From NCBI RefSeq assembly GCF_041248615.1, contig NZ_CP158426.1: a DNA stretch of 64,000 nt. One strand, written 5' to 3'. The translations under genes were made by a program, and so were the position numbers. This DNA is from Escherichia coli (GTDB lineage Bacteria > Pseudomonadota > Gammaproteobacteria > Enterobacterales > Enterobacteriaceae). The notes under the pieces were generated by a model. The model saw only the letters and a list, made by a program, of their open reading frames with translations. It did no database searches and was not told the origin of the DNA. Below, one piece after another: positions 6,137 to 63,676 of this stretch (position 1 is its first letter; every line of letters begins with the position of its first letter).

Positions 6137-8031
<1,895 letters not shown>

Positions 8032-39686: not shown

Positions 39687-39748
39687 CCTTATAGTATCAG
39701 AATAATATATATTTCTATATTTTAATTTTATAATTAAAAAGGAGTTTC

Positions 39749-40495
39749 ATGATGAAACGTGTCTCTTTCTCTCTTGCAGAAACATATGAAGCTGATGTAA
39801 TTAAAAAGTATCAGCATTTAAAAAAATGCTCATTTTCAGCAGCGATTAAAGAGTGTTTAAAGCTAGGGGCTCCTGTTTTAAACAGGATAAATGAAAATAT
39901 TGCTGCTATAACTGATATAGAGGATAAGCTACGTCAGTTTTTTAATGAGGAACCATTTGTGCAACGGACAAAGCCTGAAATAACAAAAGGAGAGTTTTTT
40001 CATAGCATTTATAAATCGCATATCAAATATGAATATGATGTTCTCGATAGAAAGATATTTCCTCATGAAAGCACCAGAAATGCTATGGGAGTTGCAGAGA
40101 AAAAGGGAATTAAAGAGAATGCGACCTTAATGCTGGAATATTATAAAGTTGAGAAGGCAATTTGTATTTACACGAACAGAAAAGTTTCCCATACCCTGAA
40201 TCGTGCAGGAGGGTTTTATAAAACCATTCTGATTAAAACCAGTGTTTTTGGGGATTATTTTTTTGACTTTTGCAATTCAGTTTGCCTGCCGATAGATGAG
40301 TTGATTGAGTATGGTACGAAAGAAACAGTGAGGCGACATCAGATTCGTAGTACAGGATTTTGTACTTTTCATATTCCGATTTTTTATATCAATAATAAGG
40401 CTGTAATAGTGCCTGTTCTGAGAACAGAGGAAGTTTCACAAAGTTCCAGAACAGGTGGAGATGTTATTATTATTAACCCATTTGAAGATGAATGA
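39749..40495 (+). CDS. hypothetical protein
   Basis: 248 aa, AT-rich codon usage, ribosome-binding site AAAAGGAG; no family recognised. Confidence 0.55.
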   Translation: MMKRVSFSLAETYEADVIKKYQHLKKCSFSAAIKECLKLGAPVLNRINENIAAITDIEDKLRQFFNEEPFVQRTKPEITKGEFFHSIYKSHIKYEYDVLDRKIFPHESTRNAMGVAEKKGIKENATLMLEYYKVEKAICIYTNRKVSHTLNRAGGFYKTILIKTSVFGDYFFDFCNSVCLPIDELIEYGTKETVRRHQIRSTGFCTFHIPIFYINNKAVIVPVLRTEEVSQSSRTGGDVIIINPFEDE

Positions 40496-40716
40496 TTATG
40501 GCCCGCGTAGATTTATTCATAACCCAGAAATCGTGGTGTAAATGATGAACAGAAACCGCTTTCTGAGGTTAAAGAGAGCAATCATTACCCGGGAGTGGCC
40601 AACTCTTTTATCGAGTACTTTTCCGATGTATCTGGAGAGCCTCCCTTAGAAAAGAGTAATGCGACTCAGGAAAAAACAGGTTCAATAATTAATTCATGAC
40701 ACCAGTTTGAGGCATT

Positions 40717-41277
40717 ATGGCGAGTTTTGCATACATAGACTCTGAAAAATGGTCAAAACTTAATCGCTTAAAATCCATGATTCAGAGATATTTTAAAGAA
40801 CCACTATTGCAGTTAACAGGCGAATTGGGTCGCCCGGATTATACTCTGGCAGACAGAAAACGGTTAGTTCGACTCCTGACGCAGGATATGCAAAGGGGTG
40901 ATATTCTGATTACTAAATCGTTAACTTGTTTTGGTAATACGCCGGAAAAAATACAGGAGGTTTTATCTTTAAGTATCAGACAAGGTATTAATATTTGCTT
41001 TTTTACGTCATCAGAGTTGCCGGATGGTGATGATATTCCTGTGGTACTCACCGGGATGATTTTACCTACAGATATTAGAGGAAAAATTCCCGACATCAGT
41101 ATCCGGAAAATTAAAAGAAAACCAGGAAGGAAAGAAGGGAGTATTCATAGTAAAAATATCAGACAGTTGAAATTGCAGGGGTTCAGTCAGTCACAAACAG
41201 CCAGAAAATTAAGCATCAGTTTATCCACTGTAAAAAGACACTGGGATAAAGGTATTGTTGATCTAACTGCAGAGTAA
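40717..41277 (+). CDS. hypothetical protein with C-terminal resolvase/invertase-type HTH
   Basis: 186 aa; C-terminus QGFSQSQTARKLSISLSTVKRHW resembles the HTH of serine recombinases; the N-terminal region lacks an obvious catalytic serine motif, so likely a regulator or degenerate recombinase. Confidence 0.5.
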   Translation: MASFAYIDSEKWSKLNRLKSMIQRYFKEPLLQLTGELGRPDYTLADRKRLVRLLTQDMQRGDILITKSLTCFGNTPEKIQEVLSLSIRQGINICFFTSSELPDGDDIPVVLTGMILPTDIRGKIPDISIRKIKRKPGRKEGSIHSKNIRQLKLQGFSQSQTARKLSISLSTVKRHWDKGIVDLTAE

Positions 41278-41473
41278 CATTTTATAGTCCTTGTAGCTAT
41301 TGGCAATGGAGTTATAAATACATGTGCGTTGGATAGGTAATATATATTATATCTGTGATGTATAGTATATGTGTAATGATGGATATGATGTACTAATAGA
41401 GCTAATGGTATTCTGATACCAAATAATTAGTTGTGTGTAGATCATAACTCTGTTTAATGTTTTAGAACGTTCT

Positions 41474-41558
41474 AATGTAACTGTGTAACATCATCCTGTT
41501 CTCTAATGTAACAATAGGCAGTAGCGTTTTTCTTAATTGACGCCCAGAGGGTTATATA
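41474..41558. repeat. intergenic repeats: direct repeat TCTAATGTAAC x2 and perfect palindrome CCCAGAGGG-TTATATAT-CCCTCTGGG
   Basis: Read directly in the 380-bp AT-rich gap upstream of the first YagK/YfjJ-like gene; coordinates approximate. Confidence 0.45.
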
Positions 41559-41658
41559 TCCCTCTGGGAACTACTGATACGAATATTAATATCTGCTTCT
41601 GTTGTGTATTGGGTAGGTTAACTATTAGCTTATCTCTGAAAGCAAAAGGAATATTAAC

Positions 41659-42273
41659 ATGATTACGATTGAAACTCTTTACGGTGAATGTCATGAGGCT
41701 CACGGGTTAAAAATAAGAAACCAGGTGAATAACCTCTTCCAGAAACATCCCAGAATAACGGCAATACGGGTGGATCTCCATTATCCTCCCGTGATTGACA
41801 ACGGGGATACCATTACCTGTTTTCCTAACCTGAGTCCCGGAGAGATATCTCGTTTCCGTAACTCGCTGAATGCGAAAATTAATGCAGATCAACACCGTAA
41901 AAAACAACAAGGCAAACGCACCTACGCAACGTCGGTTTGTATTATCTGGGCGAAAGAATATACGCAGTCCTTTAAATGTCATTATCACGTCTGCCTTTTT
42001 TTTAACAAAGACGCCTATTACCACCTGGGAGACTATGAGCGCTCTGACACCCTGAGAGGGTTAATTACCGGAGCCTGGTACAGTGCCTTAGGGTTAGAAC
42101 TGGAAGATCACCAGGGACTAGTTCATTTCCCTGCTAATGGACGTTACATCCTGGATATTAACGATCCTGATTTCCCTGAGCAATATCAGCGCTTATTGGC
42201 ACGTCTGGATTATCTGACGAAGCTCGACACTAAAGCATCAGGCCAGCGTAACTTTGGCTACAGCGGTTTTTGA
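41659..42273 (+). CDS. YagK/YfjJ-family protein (Inovirus Gp2-like domain)
   Basis: 204 aa; architecture and motifs (…HYHVCLFFNKDAYYHLG…) typical of the YagK/YfjJ family common in CP4-like islands; ribosome-binding site AAAAGGA. Confidence 0.55.
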   Translation: MITIETLYGECHEAHGLKIRNQVNNLFQKHPRITAIRVDLHYPPVIDNGDTITCFPNLSPGEISRFRNSLNAKINADQHRKKQQGKRTYATSVCIIWAKEYTQSFKCHYHVCLFFNKDAYYHLGDYERSDTLRGLITGAWYSALGLELEDHQGLVHFPANGRYILDINDPDFPEQYQRLLARLDYLTKLDTKASGQRNFGYSGF

Positions 42274-42300
42274 CCTATTGTAACTGTAAGGTGATTTATT

Positions 42301-42867
42301 ATGTATACAGAATCAAACGTTAAGCTTTCCTGTAACGCCCTCTGGCAAAAGTATGTCCTTGCAACTCTGTATCGGGCTGCAGCTACACATCCTAAAATTA
42401 AATTATTACAATTTAAATTAATACCTTGCCCAGGTATGAACAAGGCAATTCCCTCTCTGATGGCTGATTTTACTGGTGAACTGCATAGACTAATTTCTGA
42501 ATATTTGCAGTGCAAGCGACGTAAAGATAAATCTGTTGAGCCCGCCCCTTTATATTATCTCTGGAGTAGGGAAGCTGTGGCTAACGATACCACTCCTTAT
42601 CTTATGGTACTGCTACTTAATAACGATGTCTGGTGTAAGAGTCGTGAGGTGGTGGCTCTCAGAAATCTGATTGAGCAGGCGTGGGGAAAAGTATTGGGTG
42701 AAGATAACTCCATTACACATCTGGTTGTGTATCCTGAAGTGCTGTCGTTGGTATTTGATGCAGCTAACACATACAACGCTGAGCCTGGTGTACTGGAACA
42801 GACGGCCCAGGCTTACATTGAATCGCATGGTGCCATTGAACGTCATCTTGGGTGTAGTGACTTTTAA
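42301..42867 (+). CDS. YagK/YfjJ-like paralogue (divergent)
   Basis: 188 aa; similar length and motif spacing to the preceding gene (…PYLMVLLLNNDVWCKS…); followed by hairpin AGGGCCTTTCGCTGAGAGGCCCT. Confidence 0.45.
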   Translation: MYTESNVKLSCNALWQKYVLATLYRAAATHPKIKLLQFKLIPCPGMNKAIPSLMADFTGELHRLISEYLQCKRRKDKSVEPAPLYYLWSREAVANDTTPYLMVLLLNNDVWCKSREVVALRNLIEQAWGKVLGEDNSITHLVVYPEVLSLVFDAANTYNAEPGVLEQTAQAYIESHGAIERHLGCSDF

Positions 42868-42974
42868 CGACGTCAGGTGATGCATAAGGGCCTTTCGCTG
42901 AGAGGCCCTGTTTACACAATTAAATAAGTCGAGCCCGACCAGCAATTTTGACGTTGACGGCAGGATTATTGAGG

Positions 42975-43062
42975 GGCAATCAATGTGTTCTTCGGCAGCG
43001 ATTACGGTAGTGAACGGACCTGCTGTCTGAATGGTATCGATCCGCAAGCGTATCTGCGCCAT
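42975..43062 (+). pseudogene. IS66-family transposase C-terminal remnant, truncated by IS2
   Basis: Translation FGSDYGSERTCCLNGIDPQAYLRH matches the conserved …CKLNGIDPxAYL… region of IS66-family transposases; reading frame is cut at the IS2 end at 43063. Confidence 0.4.
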
Positions 43063-44151
43063 TGGATTTGCCCCTATATTTCCAGACACCTGTTATCACT
43101 TAACCCATTACTGGCCCGCTGCCGTAGATATTCCCGTGGCGAGCGATAACCCAGTGCACTATGCGGATGCCATTCGTTATAATGCTCGAACGCCTCTGCA
43201 AGGTTCTTTGCTGCCGTTAACCCGTCTGGTTTGGGCATGATACTGATGTAATCACGCTTTATCGTTTTCACGAAGCTCTCTGCTATGCCGTTACTCTCCG
43301 GACTCCGCACCGCCGTGTTCTTCGGTTCAAGTCCCAGCATCCGGGCGAACTGGCGTGTTTCATTAGCCCGGTAGCATGAACCATTATCCGTCAGCCACTC
43401 CACTGGAGATGTCGGAAGCTCGCTGCCGAAGCGGCGTTCCACCGCTCCCAGCATGACGTCCTGTACTGTTTCACTGTCGAAGCCGCCCGTAGTGACCGCC
43501 CAGTGCAGTGCCTCACGGTCACAGCAGTCCAGCGCGAACGTGACCCCCAGTTTTTCTCCGTTATCACAGCGGAACTCGAACCCGTCAGAGCACCATCGTT
43601 GATTGCTTTCTTTCACGGCCACTTTGCCAGTATGTGCCCGTTTCGATGGCGGTACAGCGGTTTTTCGCTCAAGCAACAGCGCATTCTGGCGCATGATCCG
43701 GTAAACACGTTTGGCATTGATAGCAGGCATACCATCAAGTTCGGCCTGTCTGCGAAGCAGCGCCCATACCCGACGATAACCATACGTGGGCAGCTCTCCG
43801 ATAACATGGTGTATACGGAGAAGCACATCCGTATCATCTGAGTGACGGCTGCGGCGACCATCTTTCCAGTCATCGGTTCGTCTGAGAATGACGTGCAACT
43901 GCGCACGCGACACCCGGAGACAACGGCTGACTAAGCTTACTCCCCATCCCCGGGCAACAAGGGAGACCGTCATTCCCGGTTCAAAGCTCTGCTGAACAAT
44001 AGCGATCTTTTCCTGTGTAGTACGCCGTCTGCGTTTCTCCGGCCCTAAGACATCAATCATCTGTTCTCCAATGACTAGTCTAGAAACTAGTATTAAGACT
44101 ATCACTTATTTAAGTGATATTGATTGTCTGGAGATTCAGGGGGCCAGTCTA
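43063..44151 (-). mobile_element. IS2 copy with internal deletion of about 240 bp (1089 bp versus 1331 bp canonical)
   Basis: Both IS2 termini recognised (TGGATTTGCCCCTATATTTCCAGACA at 43063; GGGGGCCAGTCTA ending 44151); the 5 bp flanking the two ends differ (GCCAT versus TATAT), so no target-site duplication. Confidence 0.8.
43074..44105 (-). CDS. IS2 transposase, in-frame InsC-InsD fusion created by the internal deletion
   Basis: N-terminal 37 aa equal InsC ([36 protein letters not shown]); the remainder equals InsD ([21 protein letters not shown]…DNRCLEI). Confidence 0.8.
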
Positions 44152-44485: not shown

Positions 44486-45496
44486 ATGTCACTCAAGGCT
44501 ATCGCCGCCGAACTCGGGATCTCTGTCACCACAGTCAGCCGGGCGCTTGGCGGATTTTCGGACGTTTCCGCTTCGACCCGTGCACGTGTAGAAGCGGAAG
44601 CTCGGCGTCGTGGTTATCGCCCGAATACCCTGGCAAGACGTCTCAAAACCGGTAAAACCGATGCGGTCGGCCTGGTCTTCCCTGAACATGCTGTACTGTT
44701 CAGCAGTAGTGTGTTTGTGGATATGGTCAGTTGTATCAGCCGGGAACTGGCCCGCCATGATATTGACTTACTGCTGATAGCCGATGATGAACGGGCTGAC
44801 AGCCACAGCTATATGCGTCTGGTCGAAAGCCGCCGGGTTGATGCCCTTATCGTGGCGCACACGATGGATAATGACCCGCGTCTTACACACCTGCAGGAGG
44901 CCGGTATTCCGTTTCTGGCACTCGGTCAGGTGCCGTCCGGTCTTCCCTGTGCCTGGTTTGACTTTGATAACCATGCAGGAACCTGGCAGGCCACACAGCA
45001 CCTGATTGCCCTGGGCCATCAGCGAATTGCCCTGCTGAGTGAGGACAACTCCCGTGCCTATGTCACTGCACGACGTCAGGGATGGCGCGATGCCCTGAGT
45101 GAACATGGTCTGCCTGAGACCTGGCTACGCCGGGTCTCTCCCACCCGACGCTCAGGTTTCCAGGCAGTGACTGAGTTAATGTCACTTCCGCTTCCCCCGA
45201 CGGCCATTATTACCGACAGTGACCTGATCGGTGATGGCGCGGCCATGTCGCTGCAGTTATCCGGTCATCTGTCCGGAGAGGATGCCGTCTCTCTTGTGGT
45301 TTATGATGGTCTGCCGCAGGACAGTATTATTGAACAGGATGTGGCTGCAGTTCTTCAGTCAACACGACATCGCGTCGGTCGTCAGATTGCCGACATGATA
45401 CGCCAGCTGGTCACGAATGTTTCACCTGAAATGCTACAAGTACTCTGGCAGCCGGAATTTCATCCTGGCAAGACAACGCTTGCTCCCTCCGCCTGA
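44486..45496 (+). CDS. rafR: LacI-family repressor of the raffinose operon (RafR-like)
   Basis: 336 aa with N-terminal HTH MSLKAIAAELGISVTTVSRAL; directly upstream of alpha-galactosidase, permease and invertase genes. Confidence 0.75.
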   Translation: MSLKAIAAELGISVTTVSRALGGFSDVSASTRARVEAEARRRGYRPNTLARRLKTGKTDAVGLVFPEHAVLFSSSVFVDMVSCISRELARHDIDLLLIADDERADSHSYMRLVESRRVDALIVAHTMDNDPRLTHLQEAGIPFLALGQVPSGLPCAWFDFDNHAGTWQATQHLIALGHQRIALLSEDNSRAYVTARRQGWRDALSEHGLPETWLRRVSPTRRSGFQAVTELMSLPLPPTAIITDSDLIGDGAAMSLQLSGHLSGEDAVSLVVYDGLPQDSIIEQDVAAVLQSTRHRVGRQIADMIRQLVTNVSPEMLQVLWQPEFHPGKTTLAPSA

Positions 45497-45515
45497 TTTT
45501 TAATCCCGCTCACAA

Positions 45516-45554
45516 ATTCGAATCGTTTCGGTTGCTATCCGAAACGATTCGGAT
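45516..45554. promoter_or_regulatory. near-perfect 16-bp inverted repeat (candidate RafR operator pair) upstream of rafA
   Basis: ATTCGAATCGTTTCGG - 7 bp - CCGAAACGATTCGGAT, located 35-75 bp before the rafA start. Confidence 0.5.
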
Positions 45555-45589
45555 CAACAGTAAGGCATACCCGAAAACGGAGATGTCTT

Positions 45590-47716
45590 ATGGAACCGAT
45601 GTACCGCAGGCTGACCAGTCCCCACTCAGACCTGATTATTAAAACCCACCCGTATGCAGAGATTGTCTGGTGGGGATCCACCCTGAAACACTTTTCACCG
45701 GATGACTGTATCAGCCTGGAAAGGCCGGTTGCGAATGGTCGTCTGGATACCGACACCCCACTGACGCTGATGGCCGAAAACGGCGCGGGACTTTTTGGCT
45801 CGCCGGGGCTGGAGGGACACCGCAACGGGCTGGATGCGTCCCCTGTGTTCCGTACCATCAGCGTGGTACAGGCCGGAGAATCACTCACCCTGACCAGTGA
45901 GGATGCAGTGGCGGGTCTGCGCATGGTCAGTGAACTGGTGCTGACATCGTCCGGTGTGCTGAAGATGCGTCATGCCCTGACGAACCTCCGTGAAGGGGAC
46001 TGGCAGGTGAACCGCTTCGCCATCACGCTCCCTGTGGCTGAAAGGGCAGAGGAAGTCATGGCCTTCCACGGACGCTGGACTCGTGAGTTTCAGCCGCACA
46101 GGGTCCGTCTCACACATGACGGTTTTGTGCTGGAGAACCGCCGGGGCCGCACGTCCCATGAGCATTTTCCGGCACTGATTGCCGGTGCCCCCGGTTTCTC
46201 AGAACAGCAGGGCGAGGTGTGGGCCGTACATCTGGGCTGGAGTGGCAACCATCGCATGAAATGTGAGGTCAAAACTGACGGACGGCGTTACCTCCAGGCG
46301 GAAGCACTGTGGATGCCCGGAGAAAAAGCCCTGAAGAAGGATGAGACCGTGTACACGCCGTGGCTGTACGCCAGCTATTCCCCGGAGGGGCTCAATGGTA
46401 TGAGTCAGCAGTACCACCGTTTTCTGCGCGATGAAATCATCCGTTTTCCTGAGCAGAAACCCCGTCCGGTGCACCTCAATACCTGGGAAGGTATTTATTT
46501 TGACCACGACCCGAACTACATCATGCAGATGGCCGGACGTGCGGCAGCGCTTGGCGTTGAACGTTTCATTATCGACGACGGCTGGTTTAAGGGACGCAAT
46601 GATGACCATGCGGCTCTGGGCGACTGGTATCTGGATGAACAGAAGTATCCGGACGGACTGATGCCGGTGATTAACCATGTGAAATCACTCGGCATGGAGT
46701 TCGGTATCTGGGTGGAACCGGAAATGATTAACCCGGACTCTGACCTCTTTCGCCGCCATCCTGACTGGGTACTGTCAATGCCGGGGTACACACAACCAAC
46801 CGGGAGACATCAGTATGTTCTCAACCTGAACATTCCTGAGGCCTTTGCTTACATTTATGAACGCTGTTTATGGCTGCTGGGCGAACACCCAGTTGACTAT
46901 GTGAAATGGGACATGAACCGCGAGCTGGTCCAGGCCGGGCATGAAGGTCGGGCGGCGGCGGACGCGCAGACCCGTCAGTTTTACCGGCTGCTGGATCTCC
47001 TGCGCGAACGTTTTCCCCGTGTTGAGTTTGAGTCCTGCGCTTCCGGCGGTGGACGTATCGACTTTGAGGTTCTGACCCGCACGCACCGCTTCTGGGCTTC
47101 TGACAACAATGACGCCCTGGAGCGCTGCACCATACAGCGTGGCATGAGTTACTTTTTCCCGCCGGAGGTTATGGGGGCACACATCGGTCATCATCGCTGC
47201 CATGCCACCTTCCGGCAGCACAGCATTGCCTTTCGCGGTCTGACGGCCCTGTTCGGTCATATGGGACTGGAGCTGGATCCGGTAACGGCCGGAGAAGAGG
47301 AATCCGCCGGTTACCGCCGCTATGCCTCGCTCTACAAAGAATGGCGGCAGCTTATCCACACGGGCACCCTATGGCGGGTGGATATGCCGGATGCGGCGAC
47401 ACAGGTGCAGGGGGTGGTCAGCCCGGATCAGTCGCAGGCGCTCTTCCTGGTGAGCCAGCTTGCCATGCCGGATCACACCCTGCCGGGTGCTCTACGTTTT
47501 CCGGGGCTGGCACCACAGGCCCGTTACCGGCTTCGTGTTGTTGACCATCCGGATATTCAGCTGGTCGGTGAAGGCGGGCATACCATGCGCAGGCTGCCCG
47601 GCTGGATGAACCAGACCTCCGACATCAGTGGGGAATGGCTGGCGCAGGCCGGTATTCAGCTTCCCGTACTGGATCCGGAAAGCGCCATGCTGATTGCCCT
47701 TGAACGTTTGGCATAA
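45590..47716 (+). CDS. rafA: alpha-galactosidase (GH36), RafA-like
   Basis: 708 aa; size and context match raffinose-plasmid RafA. Confidence 0.85.
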   Translation: MEPMYRRLTSPHSDLIIKTHPYAEIVWWGSTLKHFSPDDCISLERPVANGRLDTDTPLTLMAENGAGLFGSPGLEGHRNGLDASPVFRTISVVQAGESLTLTSEDAVAGLRMVSELVLTSSGVLKMRHALTNLREGDWQVNRFAITLPVAERAEEVMAFHGRWTREFQPHRVRLTHDGFVLENRRGRTSHEHFPALIAGAPGFSEQQGEVWAVHLGWSGNHRMKCEVKTDGRRYLQAEALWMPGEKALKKDETVYTPWLYASYSPEGLNGMSQQYHRFLRDEIIRFPEQKPRPVHLNTWEGIYFDHDPNYIMQMAGRAAALGVERFIIDDGWFKGRNDDHAALGDWYLDEQKYPDGLMPVINHVKSLGMEFGIWVEPEMINPDSDLFRRHPDWVLSMPGYTQPTGRHQYVLNLNIPEAFAYIYERCLWLLGEHPVDYVKWDMNRELVQAGHEGRAAADAQTRQFYRLLDLLRERFPRVEFESCASGGGRIDFEVLTRTHRFWASDNNDALERCTIQRGMSYFFPPEVMGAHIGHHRCHATFRQHSIAFRGLTALFGHMGLELDPVTAGEEESAGYRRYASLYKEWRQLIHTGTLWRVDMPDAATQVQGVVSPDQSQALFLVSQLAMPDHTLPGALRFPGLAPQARYRLRVVDHPDIQLVGEGGHTMRRLPGWMNQTSDISGEWLAQAGIQLPVLDPESAMLIALERLA

Positions 47717-47770: not shown

Positions 47771-49048
47771 ATGAATACTGTCAGTACTCATAAAAACCCC
47801 GATTTCTGGATATTTGGTCTGTTCTTTTTTCTCTACTTTTTCATCATGGCAACCTGTTTCCCGTTTCTGCCCGTCTGGCTGTCAGACATTGTGGGGCTGA
47901 GTAAAACGGATACCGGGATTGTTTTTTCATGCCTCTCCCTGTTTGCCATCAGCTTCCAGCCGCTGCTGGGGGTCATCTCAGACCGTCTTGGCCTGAAAAA
48001 ACACCTGATGTGGATCATCAGCCTGCTGCTGGTCCTGTTTGCACCGTTCTTTCTGTACGTTTTTGCGCCGCTGCTGCGGTTCAACATCTGGGCCGGAGCA
48101 CTGAGCGGCGGGATTTTTATCGGCTTCGTTTTTTCTGCGGGAGCCGGTGCCATCGAAGCCTATATTGAACGTGTCAGCCGCAGCAGCGGATTTGAATACG
48201 GTAAGGCCCGGATGTTCGGCTGTCTGGGCTGGGCGCTGTGTGCCACCACGGCAGGGCTGCTTTTCAACGTGGATCCGTCCCTGGTATTCTGGATGGGGTC
48301 CGGCTGCGCATTGCTGCTGGTCCTTCTGGTGGCGCTGGCGCGTCCCGGAACCAGTCAGACAGCGATGGTCATGAATGCGCTGGGTGCCAACTCGCCCGTG
48401 ATTTCCGCCGGAATGGTGTTCAGTCTGTTTCGTATGCGTCAGATGTGGATGTTCGTGCTTTACATGATTGGGGTGGCCTGCGTCTATGACGTGTTTGACC
48501 AGCAGTTTGCCACGTTCTTCCGTGCATTTTTTGACACGCCGCAGGCGGGGATCCGGGCATTTGGTTTTGCCACCACGGCTGGCGAGATTTGCAATGCCAT
48601 CATCATGTTCTGCTCCCCCTGGATAATCAACCGCATTGGTGCCAAAAACACACTGCTTGTCGCGGGTCTGATTATGACCATCCGCATCACAGGGTCGGCC
48701 TTTGCCACCACGGCTACTGAAGTGGTGATCCTGAAAATGCTGCATGCCCTTGAAGTCCCATTCCTGCTGGTTGGTGCGTTCAAGTATATCACCGGCGTGT
48801 TTGATACCCGGCTGTCGGCCACCATTTATCTGATTGGCTTTCAGTTCTCCAAACAACTGGCGGCGATATTCCTCTCAACCTTTGCAGGTCACCTGTATGA
48901 CCGCATGGGGTTCCAGAACACCTATCTGGTTCTGGGCGGTATTGTCCTTGCGGTCACCGTGTTATCGGCTTTCACCCTGAGCAGTACCCGTAAAACGGCT
49001 GCCCCGTCAGCAGAAACCGCTACAGCACAGACGGAGGTTCGCTTATGA
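47771..49048 (+). CDS. rafB: raffinose permease (LacY-family oligosaccharide:H+ symporter), RafB-like
   Basis: Start at MNTVSTHKNPDFWIFGLFFFLYFF with GAGGA ribosome-binding site; LacY-like throughout. Confidence 0.85.
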   Translation: MNTVSTHKNPDFWIFGLFFFLYFFIMATCFPFLPVWLSDIVGLSKTDTGIVFSCLSLFAISFQPLLGVISDRLGLKKHLMWIISLLLVLFAPFFLYVFAPLLRFNIWAGALSGGIFIGFVFSAGAGAIEAYIERVSRSSGFEYGKARMFGCLGWALCATTAGLLFNVDPSLVFWMGSGCALLLVLLVALARPGTSQTAMVMNALGANSPVISAGMVFSLFRMRQMWMFVLYMIGVACVYDVFDQQFATFFRAFFDTPQAGIRAFGFATTAGEICNAIIMFCSPWIINRIGAKNTLLVAGLIMTIRITGSAFATTATEVVILKMLHALEVPFLLVGAFKYITGVFDTRLSATIYLIGFQFSKQLAAIFLSTFAGHLYDRMGFQNTYLVLGGIVLAVTVLSAFTLSSTRKTAAPSAETATAQTEVRL

Positions 49049-50475
49049 AACAGCGTCTTGCCTCTGCACAGGTTGCACTTGATACACTCCGCGCCCGTCG
49101 TGGTGATACCTGGTACCCGGTTTTTCATCTGGCTCCACCTGCCGGATGGATGAATGATCCGAACGGGCTTATTTATTTCAGCGGTCGCTATCACGCATTC
49201 TTTCAGCACCATCCGGCAAGTGAACATCAGGGGCCGATGCACTGGGGACATGCCACCAGTCCGGACATGCTGCACTGGCAGCATGAGCCGGTTGCGCTGG
49301 CACCCGGTGATGAATATGACCGGGATGGCTGTTTTTCCGGCAGCGCAGTGGACGACAACGGCGTGCTGTCGCTTATCTACACCGGTCATCTCTGTCTGGA
49401 GGATCGGGGGGATGACAGCATCATCCGCGAAGTCCAGTGTCTGGCAACCAGCCGTGACGGCATTCACTTTGAGAAACAGGGCTGCGTGCTGACGCCACCG
49501 GAAGGCATCATGCATTTCCGTGACCCGAAGGTCTGGCGGGAAGGGGGATACTGGTGGATGGTTATCGGCGCGCGGGATACCTCTGACACCGGTCAGGTGC
49601 TGCTGTATCGCGGCACATCCCTGCGGGACTGGCGCCAGGAACGGGTTCTAGCGCAGTCGGCAGCCGGAGAAAGCTATATGTGGGAATGTCCGGACTTTTT
49701 CCGCTGTGGCGACCATCACTGGCTGATGTTCTCCCCGCAGGGGATGACGCCCGGCGGATACCGGTTCCGCAACCGCTTTCAGAGCGGAGTTTTACCGGGT
49801 CACTGGCAGCCGGGGGCCGCCTTTGCCCTGAGCGGGGCATTTGAAGAACTGGATCACGGTCATGATTTTTATGCCCCGCAGTCCCTGGTCGCGGAGGACG
49901 GACGGCGCATCATCATGGCCTGGATGAATATGTGGGACTCCCCGATGCCTACAAAGCGTGAGGCCTGGGCCGGATGTCTGACCCTGCCGAGGGAACTTTT
50001 TGAACGCCATGGTCGTCTGTGTCAGCGTCCGGTTCGCGAAGCCGAATCCCTTCGCGGGACGTGCCAGCCGTTACACCCTGTAAGGCTCAGTGGCACGCAG
50101 TTGCTGGCTGAGGACGCACAGGCCGTGGAACTGGTGCTGACGTGGCATACCCTCGACAGTCAGGCAGAGCATTACGGCATCCACCTGGGAGACGGGCTCC
50201 GGCTGTATGTGGATAACCAGGCAGGACGGCTGGTGCTTTGGCGTCACTACCCGGATGAGGGGCTGGACGGTTACCGCAGTATCGCGCTGCCTGGCGCAGA
50301 ATATCTGACGCTACGGGTTTTCCTGGACCGTTCATCGGTGGAAGTGTTCGTTAACGATGGCGATGCCACCCTGTCCAGCCGTATTTACCCGCAGCCCGGA
50401 ACCCGCCGGTTGTCGCTATATGCAGCTCACGGCGAGGCTGTGCTGACGGACGGCTCACTGTGGACGCTGGCCTGA
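49045..50475 (+). CDS. rafD: GH32 invertase / sucrose hydrolase, RafD-like
   Basis: 476 aa; GH32 signature WMNDPNG near the N-terminus; start overlaps rafB stop by 4 bp. Confidence 0.85.
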   Translation: MKQRLASAQVALDTLRARRGDTWYPVFHLAPPAGWMNDPNGLIYFSGRYHAFFQHHPASEHQGPMHWGHATSPDMLHWQHEPVALAPGDEYDRDGCFSGSAVDDNGVLSLIYTGHLCLEDRGDDSIIREVQCLATSRDGIHFEKQGCVLTPPEGIMHFRDPKVWREGGYWWMVIGARDTSDTGQVLLYRGTSLRDWRQERVLAQSAAGESYMWECPDFFRCGDHHWLMFSPQGMTPGGYRFRNRFQSGVLPGHWQPGAAFALSGAFEELDHGHDFYAPQSLVAEDGRRIIMAWMNMWDSPMPTKREAWAGCLTLPRELFERHGRLCQRPVREAESLRGTCQPLHPVRLSGTQLLAEDAQAVELVLTWHTLDSQAEHYGIHLGDGLRLYVDNQAGRLVLWRHYPDEGLDGYRSIALPGAEYLTLRVFLDRSSVEVFVNDGDATLSSRIYPQPGTRRLSLYAAHGEAVLTDGSLWTLA

Positions 50476-50538
50476 AATAATTCCACTGCCGTCGGTGACG
50501 GCAGTACTTTCGGTTCACCCGTAATGAAGGAAAGCACA

Positions 50539-51054
50539 ATGGGATTACTGGGCAGGATTAAACAACTGATAAGTGAAAATGAGAAACCGGCGGAAGTCAC
50601 CCGCGTGATGGCACCGCTGTCCGGTGAAATTGTCCCTCTGGACACGGTTCCGGATGCTGTGTTTGCCGGGAAAATAGTGGGGGATGGTATTGCTATCCGT
50701 CCTTCCGGCGGCGATACCTTGATGGCTCCTGTCAGCGGCACTATCGGTAAAATACTGGAGACAAACCACGCGTTTTCCATCCGCACCGACAGTGGCACTG
50801 AACTGTTCGTGCACTTCGGTATTAACACAGTTGACCTCAGGGGAGAGGGTTTCCGGCGTATTGCCCAGGAAGGCCAGCTGATCAGCACCGGTGACCCCGT
50901 CATCGGGTTTGACCTTGCGTTACTTCAGCAGAAAGCACAGTCCACGCTGACACCGGTGATTGTGGCGGACTCTGACCGTGTCCAGGAGATAACCCTGTTC
51001 TCCGGCCCGGTCATCGCCGGAGAAACACCGGTTTTTGATATCAGCAGCCAGTAA
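50539..51054 (+). CDS. PTS EIIA(Glc)-like protein (Crr paralogue)
   Basis: 171 aa from MGLLGRIK (ribosome-binding site AAGGA 7 nt upstream); contains the EIIA-Glc core …KIVGDGIAIRPSG…GKILETNHAFSI…LFVHFGINTVDLRGEGF… including the two active-site His. Confidence 0.75.
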   Translation: MGLLGRIKQLISENEKPAEVTRVMAPLSGEIVPLDTVPDAVFAGKIVGDGIAIRPSGGDTLMAPVSGTIGKILETNHAFSIRTDSGTELFVHFGINTVDLRGEGFRRIAQEGQLISTGDPVIGFDLALLQQKAQSTLTPVIVADSDRVQEITLFSGPVIAGETPVFDISSQ

Positions 51055-51324
51055 GCGCCATGAGTGACAATATCGCCAGCGGGCAGCTGGTATCAGGGAA
51101 AGCCGCACATCTGGCCTGGTGCGGGCTGGTAGCCCTGCATCTGGCCCGCCGGGATGGCCGGATTGCGTCAAAAATCCAGGAAAACCTGTTTCTAAACCGC
51201 TGGCGGAGCACAGCACTGAAACAGCACCGTTTTCCCCGCACATATCAGAGCCCTGCAGAGTGAAAGCGGGGCGAAAGATATCCGCAGCAGGCTGGAGTAT
51301 CTGTGGCAGGCCTGCTCTGGTGAT

Positions 51325-51636
51325 GTGTCGGTACAGACTGACCTGTTCCGCCTGACATTCGCCCTGGAAACCATCAGGGAGCAGGGCTGGTGCTGGCGGA
51401 TACTGAGCGACCGGAAATGGGAGGGGCGTAATGTCGTGGTTCCGAACGGGGATGCCGGCAGCTTTTATCTTTCCCGCTCACGTCTTGAGGCGGCATTTGA
51501 TTATCAGGGGAGGTTGCTGCATCCCCTGACCGGCGATGTGTCTGCCCTCGCTGCCCTGCTCCGGAATGCGGGTTGGTATCCAATTCCAGCCGGAACCACG
51601 GATATGGCGATGTTTGAGCTGTCTGTCATCCGCTGA
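51325..51636 (+). CDS. hypothetical small protein (uncertain; possibly part of a decayed gene)
   Basis: 103-aa ORF with GTG start in a GC-rich stretch where all three plus frames carry 60-100-codon ORFs (51060-51263, 51119-51355, 51325-51636). Confidence 0.25.
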   Translation: MSVQTDLFRLTFALETIREQGWCWRILSDRKWEGRNVVVPNGDAGSFYLSRSRLEAAFDYQGRLLHPLTGDVSALAALLRNAGWYPIPAGTTDMAMFELSVIR

Positions 51637-51665: not shown

Positions 51666-52592
51666 ATGAGTACAGTAAAAGTATGGGGTCTCGGTGATGC
51701 CGTGGTGGATTTATTACCGGAGAAGCCGGGCACGCTGTTGCAGTGCCCTGGTGGTGCGCCTGCCAATGTTGCCGTGGGCGTGGCCCGACTGGGGGGCCTG
51801 AGCGGGTTTGTCGGGTGTGTGGGGGATGACCCTTTCGGGCGTTTTATGCGCAAAACCCTGGCTGATGAGGGTGTGGACACGGCGTATATGCATACCGACC
51901 CTCTGTACCGGACTTCCACAGTGGTGGTGTCGCTGGTGCCGGGTGGTGAACGAACCTTCACATTTATGGTGCGCCCTTCGGCAGACCTTTTCCTTACCCC
52001 TGATGATTTACCGCCCTTTCGTGCCGGTGAATGGCTGCATACCTGCTCCAATGCCCTGAGTGCAGAGCCCTGCCGCAGCGCCACGTTTCAGGCCATGGAG
52101 AACATCCGGCAGGCTGGCGGCAGGGTCAGCTTTGACCCCAACATCCGGACTGACCTGTGGCAGAGCACATCGCAACTGCGTGAGTGTCTGCACCGGGCGC
52201 TCATGCTGGCGGATGTGGCAAAGGTATCGGAAGAGGAACTGTTCTTTATCAGCGGTGAACAGGATGTCCGGAAGGGAACCGATGTTCTGGCATCACATTA
52301 TCCCCTGGCACTGCTGCTGGTAACCCAAGGAAAGGATGGCGTGATGGCTCGCTGGCAGGGAAAAAACCTGTACTTCCCGGCAACACCGGTGGTGAGTGTG
52401 GACACGACCGGTGCCGGTGACGCCTTCGTGGCAGGTCTGCTGGCAGCGCTGGCGGCAGAGGGGATGCCCTCCGGTGAGCAGGCACTCGCATCCGTCATCG
52501 AACAGGCCCAGCGCTGTGGTGCGCTTGCCACGACAGCAAAAGGTGCCATGACAGCGTTACCCCGTCGCCAGGATTTACTGAAACACCCCTGA
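51666..52592 (+). CDS. scrK: fructokinase (ribokinase/pfkB family; ScrK/CscK-like)
   Basis: 308 aa; VLGDAVVDLL N-terminus and DTTGAGDAF ATP-binding motif. Confidence 0.85.
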   Translation: MSTVKVWGLGDAVVDLLPEKPGTLLQCPGGAPANVAVGVARLGGLSGFVGCVGDDPFGRFMRKTLADEGVDTAYMHTDPLYRTSTVVVSLVPGGERTFTFMVRPSADLFLTPDDLPPFRAGEWLHTCSNALSAEPCRSATFQAMENIRQAGGRVSFDPNIRTDLWQSTSQLRECLHRALMLADVAKVSEEELFFISGEQDVRKGTDVLASHYPLALLLVTQGKDGVMARWQGKNLYFPATPVVSVDTTGAGDAFVAGLLAALAAEGMPSGEQALASVIEQAQRCGALATTAKGAMTALPRRQDLLKHP

Positions 52593-52640: not shown

Positions 52641-54188
<1,548 letters not shown>

Positions 54189-54424: not shown

Positions 54425-55217
54425 TCAGAAGTGACCGTCCAGGCGGTCACCGAACTCGATAATAAAGCGGCTCATTGCCATTCGCCAGTCCTTCAACGGC
54501 ATCGTCCATTTCTGGGACGCAGACTGGATTGCCAGCCACACCACTTTTTTCACCGAGTCGTCTGTCGGGAACACTTTACGCTTTTTGATCGCATGGCGGA
54601 TCACGCTGTTTAGCGACTCGATGGCATTCGTCGTATAGATCACTTTGCGGATGTCCGTTGGATAAGCGAAGAACGTGGCAAGATTCGGCCAGTTAGCCTG
54701 CCAGCTTCGGCTTATCTGAGGATAGCGACTGTCCCAGGCCGCAGCGAACGCTTCCAGTGCCTGCTGACCTGCCTCTTCCGTGGGAGCTTGATAAATCGCT
54801 TTCAGGTCGCGAGTGACGGCCTTGTAGTCCTTCCATGACACGAAGCGCAGGCTGTTGCGCACCATATGCACGATGCATAACTGGATGCGGGCCTTCGGAT
54901 ATACTGTGTTGATGGCATCCGGGAAGCCTTTCAGGCCATCCACACAGGCGATGAGGATATCGTTCAGACCGCGGTTTTTCAGTTCAGTCAGCACATTGAG
55001 CCAGAACTTCGCCCCTTCATTTTCGGCCAGCCACATACCCAGCAGTTCCTTCTGACCTTCGATATTGATGCCCAGTGCCAGGAACACCGATTTGTTGATG
55101 ACGCGACTGTCCTGCCGAACTTTCAGGACGATACAGTCAAGATAAACAATGGGGTAAACAGCATCCAGTGGTCTGTTTTGCCATTCTACAACCTGCTCCA
55201 TCACGGCATCGGTGACC
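54425..55217 (-). pseudogene. IS256-family (mutator-type) transposase, N-terminally truncated by IS3-family insertion
   Basis: Encodes only the C-terminal roughly 260 aa (…VTDAVMEQVVEWQNRPLDAVYPIVYLDCIVLKVRQD…); the frame runs open into the terminal inverted repeat of the neighbouring IS3-family element at 55218. Confidence 0.75.
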
Positions 55218-55271: not shown

Positions 55272-55598
55272 ATGACTAAAAATACTCGTTTTTCCCCCGA
55301 AGTCCGTCAGAGGGCGATTCGTATGGTTCTGGAAAGTCAGGGCGAATATGACTCACAGTGGGCGGCAATTTGTTCCATTGCCCCAAAGATTGGCTGTACA
55401 CCGGAGACTCTGCGTGTCTGGGTGCGCCAGCATGAGCGGGATACCGGAGGCGGTGATGGCGGGCTCACCACCGCTGAACGTCAGCGTCTGAAAGAGCTGG
55501 AACGTGAAAATCGTGAACTGCGCCGCAGTAACGATATCCTTCGCCAGGCTTCCGCTTATTTTGCGAAGGTGGAGTTCGACCGCCTCTGGAAAAAGTGA
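55272..55598 (+). CDS. IS3-family transposase OrfA (IS629/IS1203-like)
   Basis: 108 aa, [51 protein letters not shown]; HTH plus leucine zipper. Confidence 0.85.
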
Positions 55599-56012
55599 TG
55601 CCACTGCTGGATAAGCTGCGTAAGCTGTACGGGGTCGGACCGGTATGCAGTGAACTACATATTGCCCCGTCAACGTATTACCACTGTCAGCAACAGCGAC
55701 ATCATCCTGATAAACGCAGTGCCCGTGCGCAGCGCGATGACTGGCTGAAGAAAGAGATACTGCGCGTATACGATGGGAATCATCAGGTATACGGTGTGCG
55801 TAAAGTCTGGCGTCAGTTGTTACGGGAAGGAATCAGGGTAGCCAGATGTACAGTGGCGCGCCTCATGGCGGTTATGGGACTTGCCGGTGTTCTCCGGGGT
55901 AAAAAGGTCCGCACTACCGTCAGCCGGAAAGCCGTTGCCGCAGGCGACCGCGTAAACCGTCAGTTTGTGGCAGAACGTCCTGACCAGTTGTGGGTGGCTG
56001 ATTTTACTTACG
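55595..56012 (+). CDS. IS3-family transposase OrfB, 5' exon (interrupted by group II intron)
   Basis: Frame runs to …[10 protein letters not shown] then meets GTGTG at 56013; the ORF-track continuation [15 protein letters not shown] is intron read-through. Confidence 0.65.
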
Positions 56013-58761
<2,749 letters not shown>

Positions 58762-58799
58762 CCACTTCAGTGGGTGGTGGTGTTAAGAGCATGCGGTCT

Positions 58800-58935
58800 G
58801 CGTAAGAGAAAGGGGTGAGCATTTTACGCTGCTGTTGCTGCCGGATGCGGCTCGCGCCTTATCCGGCCTATAAATGAGCGTGAAACGCAGGCCTACAAAT
58901 GAGTGTGAAATGTAGGCCTGATAAGCGAAGCGCCA
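58800..58935. repeat. REP-like elements
   Basis: TGCCGGATGCGGCTCGCGCCTTATCCGGCCTA and GTAGGCCTGATAAGCGAAGCGCCATCAGG between the IS3-family end and the lactate module. Confidence 0.45.
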
Positions 58936-59142
58936 TCAGGAATAAGTGCCAGGTATTACACGCGGAAGTAGCGTGGTGGAATCAACGCGGAAAAGGCGTC
59001 GAACTTCTTCACCATCTTTTTCCAGAACAACATAACAACAATCCTCGATTTGAAACATCGGCGCTATTTTAGTCAGCGCCGACAAATCGTAAAGCCTGTC
59101 GCCTTGTTCCGTTTCTGGGGTGGTATAAACCTTTTTGGTCAC
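58936..59142 (-). CDS. hypothetical small protein (low confidence)
   Basis: 68-aa ORF co-directional with and 48 bp downstream of the lactate permease gene; no family recognised. Confidence 0.25.
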   Translation of the reverse strand: MTKKVYTTPETEQGDRLYDLSALTKIAPMFQIEDCCYVVLEKDGEEVRRLFRVDSTTLLPRVIPGTYS

Positions 59143-59190
59143 TGTGTCGTCAAATACGATTGCCGCGAATTTGACGGGGTTGACAATGGC

Positions 59191-60744
59191 TTACGCCATA
59201 AACCAGTAATAAAAGAGACCGACTTTCAGGCCAAGGATCACAATGTAGGCACAGCAGTATTTCATGGTGCCAGACATGATCTGATTGGCCTGACCGTCCA
59301 TTTTGGTGGCAGAAACCGCGATGGCGATGCTTTGCGGCGAAATCATTTTGCCCCCCGTAGCGCCAGAGGTATTGGCCGCCGCCAGCCAGTTGGGATCGAT
59401 ATGTAACTTGCTGGCAGCTATGGTTTGCAGCTTGCCAAACAGAATGTTCGAGTTGGTATCGCTGCCGGTAACGAACGTGCCCAGCGCGCCAATCACCGGG
59501 GCGAGGAAGACGTACGAGCTGCCGGTCAGATCGACAATCGACTGCGCCAGTGTGGAGATAATCCCGCTGAGATCCATCACCGTGGCCAGCGCGACGATCG
59601 CCATAATTGCCACGATAGAGTTTTTAAGCTGGAAAATCGTTTTGATAAATACTTCCAGCATCCCGCGTGCGGACGCTCCCTGAATAAAACCGCCGATAAT
59701 GGTCGCAAAGATAATCAGCATCCCTGGTGTGGTCACCCATTCAACTTTCAGTGCCATCGTTTTGCCGTCAGCCAACGTGAAATGCAGCACCGAAGCCAGT
59801 TGGGATGCCGCGCCTTTTATTGTCGGAAACAGCGGCGAACACAGCAGGATAAACACAAAAATAAACAGATAGATAGAGCCCACGCGGAACAACACTTTTG
59901 CCGAGCGCGGCGTGGTTTCGCGGGTATGGCTGACCTCAATGCGCCACTCTGGATCGGTTTTCCCTTTGCGCAGGCGACTGACCATCGCCACGGCAAACAG
60001 GCTGACCAGGCTACCGGCAAAAGCGGGTAATTCCGCGCCAAGATGGATGGCGACAAAATATTGCGGAATCAGCGTGGAAATGCCGCAAATCAACGTGATC
60101 AGAAATACGCCGCGAATGGCTTTCAGGCCACCGCCAATAATGCAGACAATCACAAACGGCAGCAGGATATTAAACAGCGCGAGCTGCAAAATAATGGTTC
60201 CGCCTAAGGTATAAACCGGCAGATTAACCTGCTCTGCCAGAATAGAAACCGGGATCCCAACCGCGCCAAATGCGGTCGGAACGGTATTTGCTACGAGGGA
60301 AGCAATCGCCGCCTTCAACGGGTTGAATCCCAGCGCAATGAGAATACCGATCGGAATAGCGACCGCCGTGCCATAGCCCGCAGCGGCTTCAAGAAATCCA
60401 CCAAAACACCATGAAATCAGCAGCACCTGAATACGCTTATCTTCGCTAATGCTGGCGAGAATATCGCGCAGAATATCCAGCGCTTTGGTCGCCTGCATGA
60501 CGTTATAACTGAAGATAGCGCCGAGGATAACAATTACGATCGGCCATAGTCCCTTCAGTGCACCATAGCCTATCGCGGCTTTCAAATTTTGTACGGGCAT
60601 TTCCCAGAATATTGCCGATAGTGCAGCGGTGAATACCAAAGAGATCAGTACGGAATAATGGATGGGCATTTTTAATTTCAGTATTAAAAATACCATCAGC
60701 AGCAAAGGAGAGAGTGCCAGAGCAAACATTAAATATTCGTGCAT
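59191..60744 (-). CDS. lactate permease (LctP family)
   Basis: 517 aa, highly hydrophobic multi-span protein with LctP-type segments; divergent from the Dld-like gene across a 430-bp AT-rich promoter region. Confidence 0.8.
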   Translation of the reverse strand: MHEYLMFALALSPLLLMVFLILKLKMPIHYSVLISLVFTAALSAIFWEMPVQNLKAAIGYGALKGLWPIVIVILGAIFSYNVMQATKALDILRDILASISEDKRIQVLLISWCFGGFLEAAAGYGTAVAIPIGILIALGFNPLKAAIASLVANTVPTAFGAVGIPVSILAEQVNLPVYTLGGTIILQLALFNILLPFVIVCIIGGGLKAIRGVFLITLICGISTLIPQYFVAIHLGAELPAFAGSLVSLFAVAMVSRLRKGKTDPEWRIEVSHTRETTPRSAKVLFRVGSIYLFIFVFILLCSPLFPTIKGAASQLASVLHFTLADGKTMALKVEWVTTPGMLIIFATIIGGFIQGASARGMLEVFIKTIFQLKNSIVAIMAIVALATVMDLSGIISTLAQSIVDLTGSSYVFLAPVIGALGTFVTGSDTNSNILFGKLQTIAASKLHIDPNWLAAANTSGATGGKMISPQSIAIAVSATKMDGQANQIMSGTMKYCCAYIVILGLKVGLFYYWFMA

Positions 60745-61174
60745 TACAATTCCCGATTTACTTTTTTAGACTGAGCTATATTTATGGGGAAGGAAGCTAC
60801 CTGAATAATAAAATAAAAAATGCTAACTGAATCGCTTCAGTGAAATAAAGTTATAAAGGTTAATAATTGTATAAATAATGTTATTTTTTTATTAAATATG
60901 AATAACCACTAAATATTACAACACCCATTAGAGTTAATCATTAATAGGTATGGGATGATCTTTGCAATAAATAAGTGTTTTGGCATCCCCTCAAAGGGCG
61001 AGGTATGAATTATATGGCGGTGGTAATTTCATTAAAAAATGTGAGCGGTACCGAAAGAAATAAAATGGGGTATTGCATGTGGATATTGATTGAGGGAATA
61101 TTCTGCTTTGTCATACAAATGAACTTATAGCCATTTTCACTGGCCCTGATATAAGGAGCGGAGAGCCGCCCTCC

Positions 61175-62872: not shown

Positions 62873-62946
62873 AATACGAATGAACATTTGTTTGATATCG
62901 CGATATCAAGCGCAATAAACAGAAATGAAGCAATGGAGTAGTTATT

Positions 62947-63666: not shown

Positions 63667-63676
63667 GGGGAAAGAG

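Follow-up and report, generated by a model that had tools for sequence, protein, structure and literature searches.

Inducer exclusion is normally described as the work of one global regulator, Crr, the enzyme IIA of the glucose phosphotransferase system (EIIA(Glc) of the PTS), on many permeases, and LacY, MelB and MalK are among its targets. Crr-mediated regulation of the raffinose permease RafB was reportedly described by Titgemeyer et al. in 1994, and carbon flux from non-PTS sugars is said to lower the phosphorylation of EIIA(Glc), a finding ascribed to Hogema et al. in 1998. The raf operons of the pRSD2 type (rafR-rafABD-rafY) end with the porin gene rafY and contain no EIIA gene, and papers that discuss raf in Escherichia coli name rafRABD and rafY only. 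Here, we have analyzed a stretch of 64,000 nucleotides of the E. coli contig NZ_CP158426.1 (assembly GCF_041248615.1; referred to as the window) in which rafD is directly followed by an intact gene for an EIIA(Glc)-like protein (positions 50539-51054, plus strand). Our work strongly supports the idea that this protein, the window EIIA, is a paralogue that is maintained by selection as a part of the raf regulon; its proposed action on RafB is more tentative.

The closest relatives of the window rafRABD genes are those of the pRSD2 type: The order rafR-rafA-rafB-rafD and the tandem RafR operators are shared, and the proteins are 79-89% identical (83-89% for RafA, RafB and RafD). Where pRSD2-type operons end with rafY, the window instead has the EIIA gene, a decayed remnant related to DUF2913, a fructokinase gene and a gene for a porin of the ScrY/LamB type. 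A fructokinase and a ScrY-like porin are also found in the scrKYABR regulons of pUR400, Klebsiella and Rahnella, and ScrA-type permeases depend on EIIA(Glc). Unlike these regulons, the window cluster lacks scrA and thus the EIIBC component, its invertase is of the CscA/RafD type with 40% identity to the ScrB type, and the EIIA gene is tied to rafD in other lineages. The initial annotation, which had been made from the sequence alone, regarded the arrangement as foreign to the textbook descriptions of both raf and scr, and this view is confirmed: pRSD2-type operons have no EIIA gene, there is no ScrA EIIBC in the island that carries the cluster, and the invertase is not of the ScrB type.

With respect to function, the nearest analogy may be provided by the IIA domain of LacS and RafP. 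In these galactoside/raffinose carriers of Streptococcus thermophilus and Pediococcus, respectively, the carrier has a C-terminal IIA(Glc)-like regulatory domain. The likeness consists in a IIA(Glc)-type module that exclusively serves a symporter for non-PTS oligosaccharides, presumably under the control of phosphorylation by HPr. The IIA domain of LacS and RafP is, however, fused to a carrier of the GPH family, whereas the window EIIA is encoded by a separate open reading frame after rafD, and its carrier RafB is a LacY-family protein without a fused domain. Accessory EIIA regulators are a further point of comparison: K. pneumoniae KPN00353/EtcA and EIIA(Ntr) are likewise EIIA paralogues, reported to act by protein-protein regulation and not by the transport of sugars (PMC5770620, PMC6629953). 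These proteins belong to other EIIA families or to EIIABC clusters, and neither is part of a raffinose or LacY-type regulon. Full-text searches of the literature, which did not extend to older key papers (Titgemeyer 1994, Ulmke 1997, Chen 2013), returned no description of a raf-linked EIIA.

The window EIIA gene is intact from ATG to TAA (a coding sequence of 516 nt, 171 codons), and a Shine-Dalgarno sequence, AAGGAAA, is located 6-7 nt 5' of the ATG. A second possible start codon, the ATG at 50524, would result in a protein of 176 amino acids; the start at 50539 is favoured because MGLL... pairs with MGLF... of Crr from residue 1 onwards and because RefSeq has the same coding sequence. In identical islands, exactly these 516 nt are labelled 'crr' in RefSeq. 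The protein shares 59% identity and 78% similarity with E. coli Crr over 170 residues (BLASTP, E = 5e-75), it matches the Crr equivalog model NF006962 of NCBIfam ('PTS glucose transporter subunit IIA') with 235.9 bits at a cut-off of 212 bits, and the Pfam domain PF00358 (PTS_EIIA_1) is found with E = 2.1e-42 over model positions 2-126 of 127. The identity to the Crr proteins of the solved structures 1GGR, 4JBW and 3OUR is 59% as well. The G+C content (0.55; 0.61 at third codon positions) is in line with the remaining cluster. Thus, the claim that a Crr-like protein of 171 amino acids is encoded between the invertase and fructokinase genes was correct, and so was the second one, that both active-site histidine contexts are conserved: His77 in ETNHAFS and His92 in ELFVHFGINTV align without gaps to the Crr contexts and correspond to His75 and His90 in the numbering of the Crr literature. 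The hydrophobic patch at the active site is retained as well (F42, I46, V47, F90 and V98), with the conservative change of Crr Phe71 to Leu73, and so are G48, A78 and S80 (window numbering).

Housekeeping Crr, encoded by ptsH-ptsI-crr, and the window EIIA have the same fold family, length, histidines, hydrophobic patch and N-terminal helix. Unlike crr, the gene studied here is part of a RafR-controlled regulon on a mobile island; it is a second copy, it belongs to a clade of its own, and it is far more diverged than orthologous crr genes. It is located between rafD and the fructokinase gene and not directly 3' of ptsH-ptsI, and the encoded protein falls short of the identity of more than about 80% that would be expected of a Crr orthologue across Enterobacterales and Vibrionales. 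Judged by its context, its divergence and its status as a second copy, the window EIIA belongs to the EIIA(Glc) family without being the crr orthologue.

Two lines of evidence, the relatives of the protein and the organization of their genes, tie this EIIA to raffinose utilization. Among 5.8 billion proteins, the window EIIA has its own cluster of near-identical sequences, and then the identity drops from 99% to about 66%; all further matches are at or below 66%, and most of them are housekeeping Crr proteins. Two of the more distant relatives are encoded directly after rafD: P0079 of Citrobacter braakii (62-63% identical to the window EIIA, depending on the alignment) and P0090 of Klebsiella michiganensis (60%, widespread). 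In both raf clusters, rafD and the EIIA gene are separated by 63-68 nt, and the EIIA gene accompanies rafD without scrK or scrY. The order is rafR-rafA-rafB-rafY-rafD-EIIA in C. braakii (locus L002), whereas in K. michiganensis (locus L005) rafD-EIIA is followed after 1.1 kb by rafR-rafA-rafB-rafY. None of the three types of raf cluster contains an EIIBC gene, and large protein searches seeded with the window protein and P0079 revealed no further raf-linked lineage beyond these three. There was also no EIIA gene next to the GH32 gene in any of 80 csc/scr-type loci from GTDB species representatives, and no match for EIIA in raf plasmids of Pantoea. In a neighbour-joining tree of 110 Crr-like sequences, the three lineages and their near-identical copies form an exclusive clade of six members; against 29 diverse Crr proteins this clade has a bootstrap support of 200/200, to which long-branch attraction may contribute. 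A single gain of the gene with a later loss in the pRSD2 lineage would be predicted. The raf-linked proteins are 60-66% identical to any Crr, with a range of 57-66% for the window EIIA, while Crr-like proteins that were compared pairwise share 81-85% with E. coli Crr.

The comparison of the C. braakii and K. michiganensis loci indicates that both are mosaics, since RafA and RafB are 98% and 96% identical, respectively, but RafD only 83% and EIIA 75%. The rates of synonymous substitution (dS) are similar for rafD (1.11) and the EIIA gene (1.23), suggesting that rafD-EIIA is a module with a history of its own whose two genes have been kept together. With a ratio of nonsynonymous to synonymous substitution (dN/dS) of 0.13, as compared to 0.086 for RafD, the EIIA gene is under purifying selection. 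Taken together with the conserved features described above, the window EIIA is very probably a selected EIIA paralogue of the raf regulon.

The expression signals of the two related clusters point in the same direction. At the rafA promoter of the window, two matches to AACCGAAACGTTTCGGTT with at most three mismatches are present, as compared to 0.03 expected by chance. In C. braakii (about 6270-6330) and K. michiganensis (6213-6266), the rafA promoter/operator block, GCTCACAAA-O1-O2-ATCAACAGT, is copied 5' of rafD-EIIA, as judged from the comparison of positions 6213-6266 and 10655-10712 of the K. michiganensis locus with positions 45509-45562 of the window. The region of about 800 nt 5' of rafD in both loci contains a duplicated raf promoter/operator and not a decayed permease gene. 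This duplicated block suggests that rafD-EIIA is a separate RafR-controlled unit in the two species, and EIIA is predicted to be controlled by RafR in all three lineages. A candidate origin of the gene as a relic of a PTS operon of the scrA-scrB type was rejected: RafD is CscA-like, none of the 80 GH32 loci has an adjacent EIIA gene, and there is no EIIBC remnant beside the porin gene or rafD.

The raf-linked proteins have also changed in common. At positions that are conserved in at least 95% of 104 housekeeping Crr proteins (UniProt numbering), the three lineages share the derived residues E44G, D95N/S, E98D, K133Q/V, V140I, N143D/E, M144S/T, K148Q/I and K152L/P. The changes found in all three affect two acidic residues at the rim of the interaction face (E44G and D95N/S) and a block of C-terminal strands (133-152). 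Roles at the interfaces with HPr, IIB and GlpK are ascribed to Asp94, Glu43 and Glu97 and are not used as evidence here. Gly47, Ala76 and Ser78 (Crr numbering) are reported to be required for the regulation of LacY, and all of them are conserved in the window EIIA. The N-terminal helix of EIIA(Glc) also serves phosphotransfer to membrane-bound EIIBC. In Crr, this helix anchors the protein to the membrane and is needed for the action on the MalFGK2 transporter (PMC6906923). In the raf-linked proteins, the helix is predicted from its amphipathic pattern only: The hydrophobic residues 3, 4, 7, 10 and 11 within residues 1-18 are kept in all three. This pattern of conservation and change would fit a protein that still takes part in the phosphorelay and acts at the membrane, while most of the constraints imposed by the many partners of Crr have been lifted.

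The features of the cluster, all of them on the plus strand except for the transposase gene, are as follows:

44486-45496, plus strand: rafR, LacI-family repressor of 336 amino acids (LacI-family NCBIfam matches; 79% amino acid identity to pRSD2-type RafR)
45516-45533 and 45537-45554, plus strand: tandem RafR-type palindromic operators in the rafA promoter region (the matches to the operator sequence given above)
45590-47716, plus strand: rafA, GH36 alpha-galactosidase of 708 amino acids (RefSeq annotation; 87% amino acid identity to pRSD2-type RafA)
47771-49048, plus strand: rafB, LacY-family raffinose/H+ symporter (TIGR00882, 679 bits; start as in the RefSeq coding sequence)
49045-50475, plus strand: rafD, CscA-like GH32 invertase of 476 amino acids (TIGR01322, 445 bits)
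50476-50538, plus strand: spacer of 63 nt between the rafD and EIIA coding sequences
50485-50505, plus strand: GC-rich hairpin of 9 bp in this spacer, ACTGCCGTC-ggt-GACGGCAGT (terminator-like match)
50539-51054, plus strand: raf-linked EIIA(Glc) paralogue of 171 amino acids (BLASTP, NCBIfam, Pfam)
51060-51636, plus strand: decayed, frame-shifted DUF2913-like remnant in two pieces, 51060-51263 and 51325-51636 (two RefSeq 'DUF2913 family' coding sequences)
51666-52592, plus strand: ScrK/CscK-like fructokinase of 308 amino acids (NF006957, 477 bits at a cut-off of 450)
52692-54188, plus strand: ScrY/LamB-family sugar porin of 498 amino acids with an N-terminal coiled coil (maltoporin-family matches)
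54425-55204, minus strand: truncated transposase of IS1414 (IS256-like) at the border of the sugar cluster (annotated by RefSeq in the identical island; list of open reading frames)

RafB, the sole inner-membrane protein of the raf regulon, has about 425 amino acids and, when aligned together with four further RafB proteins, is co-linear with LacY and has no extra domain. It would thus be a plausible target of EIIA. The LGAN motif of the central loop is common to LacY and to RafB of all lineages. The transporter of the cluster is therefore of the LacY type and not a PTS permease, as the initial annotation had stated: RafB matches TIGR00882 with 679 bits, and a gene for a PTS EIIB or EIIC is found neither in the RefSeq annotation of the island nor among the large open reading frames at the right end of the window. 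RafD is 68-73% identical to invertases of the csc type as compared to 40% for the ScrB-type enzyme of the Rahnella scr loci, and the RafA homologues of C. braakii and K. michiganensis contain the Pfam domain Melibiase. The fructokinase is 70-72% identical to CscK of the csc loci of Providencia and Morganella. The porin shares 59% identity with the ScrY-like porin of Rahnella, resembles RafY in the N-terminal coiled coil only and is therefore not RafY. Since RafD is of the CscA type and since fructokinases and ScrY-type porins accompany non-PTS csc clusters too, we can conclude that the island is non-PTS apart from the EIIA gene.

The two elements that flank the EIIA gene deserve a comment. In the spacer upstream, the hairpin and a second small stem give the RNA (69 nt) a minimum free energy of -20 kcal/mol (z = -2.6), and a weak U-tract comes after the hairpin. 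At the same spot, stems that are weaker and differ in sequence are found in the spacers of C. braakii (about 7945-7965) and K. michiganensis (about 7941-7962); three to four sequences are too few for covariation. No known RNA element was found in the spacer with Rfam. The hairpin may act as a partial terminator or as an mRNA-stabilizing stem and in this way set the ratio of RafD to EIIA. Downstream, the DUF2913-like remnant begins 5 nt after the EIIA stop codon. It was considered as a functional partner of EIIA, but this was discarded: The gene is frame-shifted, the Pfam match is weak (E = 0.0023), no intact relative was found among the 5.8 billion proteins, and it is missing from the other two lineages. 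The remnant may lie where the rafRABD-EIIA module was joined to the fructokinase-porin module.

The raf cluster is located within a genomic island. The start of the island follows a gene for a tyrosine integrase (34950-36266) beside the core gene nfeF, and the whole window is free of tRNA genes. Over 22 kb, the island is 99.9% identical to that of APEC O2-211, whereas the flanking core is only about 97% identical. In the region 36366-44105 of the island, two paralogues with inovirus-Gp2/YagK-YfjJ domains (41659-42273 and 42301-42867) are encoded, and an IS3-family transposase gene (43074-44105, minus strand) lies just 5' of rafR. On the other side of the cluster, the segment 55272-58770 contains an element of the IS3 family that has an ALIL frameshift pseudoknot (Rfam match 55553-55669) and is split by a group II intron with a reverse transcriptase/maturase open reading frame (56669-58192) and a match to Rfam Intron_gpII (RF00029; 58196-58282). 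To the right of the shared island (58770-64000), the two sequences part: APEC O2-211 has a methylation-associated defence system (MADS) at this place, whereas the window encodes a transporter of the lactate permease family (59191-60744, minus strand), a D-lactate dehydrogenase (61175-62872) and an LdhH/GlcF-like iron-sulfur protein (62947-63666).

Window-type rafD (at least 99% identity) is present in 246 of 5426 complete E. coli genomes (4.5%), mostly on the chromosome, and also on nine plasmids of E. coli and Salmonella. Isolates from chicken and pig recur among the listed island matches. For the stretch 50715-51455 (3' two-thirds of the EIIA gene plus DUF2913 remnant), 222 of the 246 carriers have a complete match and 22 more a partial one; in the one partial case that was inspected, the EIIA part is retained and the match breaks off at a group II intron. 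Interruption of the DUF2913 remnant by a group II intron also occurs in other strains (H101). Housekeeping crr is found in 5425 of the 5426 genomes, the island carriers included, and the island EIIA is thus always a second EIIA(Glc). A natural in-frame deletion of 750 bp at a CCGGC microhomology (about 50710-51459 of the window; allele P0178) fuses codon 57 of EIIA to the DUF2913 remnant. This allele lacks both histidines and occurs on 32 contigs in a large protein collection.

Plasmid counts for such genes have to be treated with care. Supposed plasmid-borne EIIA homologues with 58-60% identity were rejected, as the two that were checked (H61 and H70) are chromosomal ptsHI-crr fragments filed as plasmids; the nine window-type plasmids are the only genuine cases. 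Several of the PLSDB records behind the matches H60-H73 (e.g. NZ_OU015330.1 and NZ_MT039221.1; loci L091 and L092) are chromosome fragments or whole chromosomes with ligA-zipA-cysZK-ptsHI-crr, and such misfiled records would inflate the counts of plasmid-borne EIIA genes.

What could a second EIIA(Glc) do in a regulon without a PTS permease? The pairing of rafD and EIIA in three diverged lineages, the purifying selection, and the separate promoter with RafR operators in two of them favour a role that is specific for raf. Of the explanations considered, the most likely one is tentatively that the window EIIA is a private regulator of RafB that responds to the state of the PTS; this proposal may well turn out to be wrong. 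In E. coli, EIIA would share the RafR-controlled promoter with rafA, rafB and rafD, whereas in Citrobacter and Klebsiella it would be transcribed with rafD from the duplicated promoter/operator block. HPr of the host would reversibly phosphorylate EIIA on His92, the N-terminal amphipathic helix would place the protein at the membrane, and the dephosphorylated form may bind RafB and slow down the uptake of raffinose with protons. The influx of raffinose would thereby be coupled to the state of the PTS and to the phosphoenolpyruvate:pyruvate ratio. It is tempting to speculate that co-expression with RafB provides the regulator in proportion to the permease, so that the limited Crr pool of the host is not drained.

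Several observations weigh against this proposal. Operons of the pRSD2 type, the closest raf lineage, work without an EIIA, and a second EIIA looks redundant since Crr of the host already regulates RafB. In the sequence of RafB, and of its central loop in particular, clusters that have an EIIA gene do not differ in an obvious way from those that lack it. The exchanges E44G and D95N/S neutralize the acidic rim and could weaken the binding of HPr or change the partners in an unpredictable way. Moreover, the hairpin in the spacer could reduce read-through into the EIIA gene, and the occurrence of the deletion allele on 32 contigs indicates that EIIA is dispensable in some strains.

The initial annotation had offered phosphotransfer to a PTS partner encoded elsewhere as the alternative to a regulation of RafB. 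In this case, EIIA would be an extra phosphocarrier for Crr-dependent EIIBC proteins such as ScrA, PtsG, TreB or MalX, and it could serve to recapture glucose or sucrose that has leaked during raffinose breakdown, or provide a compatible EIIA in a new host. The Crr equivalog score, the phosphorylation-site signature, the hydrophobic patch and the N-terminal helix would all suit such a carrier, as would the fructokinase and ScrY-like porin genes after EIIA, which occur in scrKYABR regulons too. We nevertheless consider it unlikely, since the claim is weakened on several sides: An EIIBC gene is lacking from all three types of cluster and from the rest of the island, RafD is CscA-like (about 70%) rather than ScrB-like (40%), ScrY-type porins and fructokinases belong to csc clusters as well, and in Citrobacter and Klebsiella EIIA comes with rafD but without scrK and scrY. 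An extra carrier would also be redundant given the nearly ubiquitous crr in E. coli, and crr belongs to the core PTS genes of Enterobacterales, the hosts from Citrobacter, Klebsiella and Salmonella among them. Finally, the fast divergence argues against a role that requires all partner contacts of Crr. A further idea is that the raffinose regulons of Enterobacteriaceae carry a private EIIA(Glc) that acts in trans and has been retuned by E44G, D95N/S, E98D and the changes in the C-terminal strands to act on RafB only, as a decoy or as a phosphorylation-dependent activator similar to the IIA domain of LacS; there is a small chance that this is the case. In the form of an anti-exclusion device, EIIA would hold the site on RafB without inhibiting it, or activate the permease when phosphorylated, so that RafB is shielded from Crr of the host and raffinose is used alongside glucose. 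A precedent is set by LacS and RafP, two galactoside carriers of Gram-positive bacteria that are independent of the PTS and modulated by IIA domains, and the changes of the rim and the C-terminal strands that are common to three lineages fit altered partners better than a simple duplication. This device is purely speculative, however, and the conserved residues with a reported role in LacY regulation, Gly47, Ala76 and Ser78, fit an inhibitor equally well; we regard it as very unlikely.

It is rather unlikely that EIIA acts on signalling instead of transport. Its phosphorylated form would then stimulate adenylate cyclase, or the protein would buffer the Crr pool, and the raf expression that depends on cyclic AMP and CRP as well as other outputs of Crr would be kept steady against the perturbation of the PTS by a highly expressed permease and the intracellular release of glucose. 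The co-regulation with the raf genes and the conserved catalytic histidines are compatible with such a modulator. Crr has many regulatory partners (PMC4996493), and there is a precedent in Klebsiella, where the accessory EIIA homologue KPN00353 is reported to interfere with glycerol kinase, a target of Crr (PMC5770620). Yet, no sequence feature suggests an interaction with adenylate cyclase, and the tie to rafD would be left unexplained. The last alternative denies any function: EIIA might be a duplicate that hitch-hikes with the island and is neither expressed nor selected in E. coli. The absence of EIIA from pRSD2-type operons, the deletion allele, the strong hairpin in front of the gene and the decayed DUF2913 neighbour can be cited in its favour. 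We give this explanation little credence, as three lineages with protein sequences that are 25-40% different have all kept the open reading frame intact, dN/dS is 0.13, the catalytic signature and the helix pattern are conserved, and the gene has a good Shine-Dalgarno sequence. In addition, two lineages have a dedicated promoter with RafR operators, and most E. coli carriers (222 of 246, with partial matches in 22 more) have retained the stretch that includes the 3' two-thirds of the gene.

While the EIIA(Glc) family itself is well known, a raf-linked member with relatives after rafD in Citrobacter and Klebsiella has apparently not been noted before, and the gene appears to be unstudied; its label 'crr' in RefSeq conceals that it is a paralogue. 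As a natural, diverged EIIA(Glc), the protein provides material for the assignment of surfaces of Crr to their partners, and the strains with the deletion allele P0178 are natural EIIA knock-outs that are ready for a comparison of phenotypes. Raffinose-family sugars are abundant in soy-based feed (PMC12987596). Given these sugars and the common island, EIIA may affect gut fitness and the hierarchy of sugar utilization in livestock-associated E. coli, Salmonella, Citrobacter and Klebsiella. If EIIA were to act as a decoy or an activator, a mobile element would rewire the PTS hierarchy of its host in favour of its own sugar. If the assignment to the raf regulon is true, a sugar regulon with its own diverged and co-regulated EIIA(Glc) would represent a type of organization that is new for Gram-negative bacteria. 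It would show that PTS signalling can take a private route that is supplied together with a non-PTS transporter acquired by horizontal transfer.

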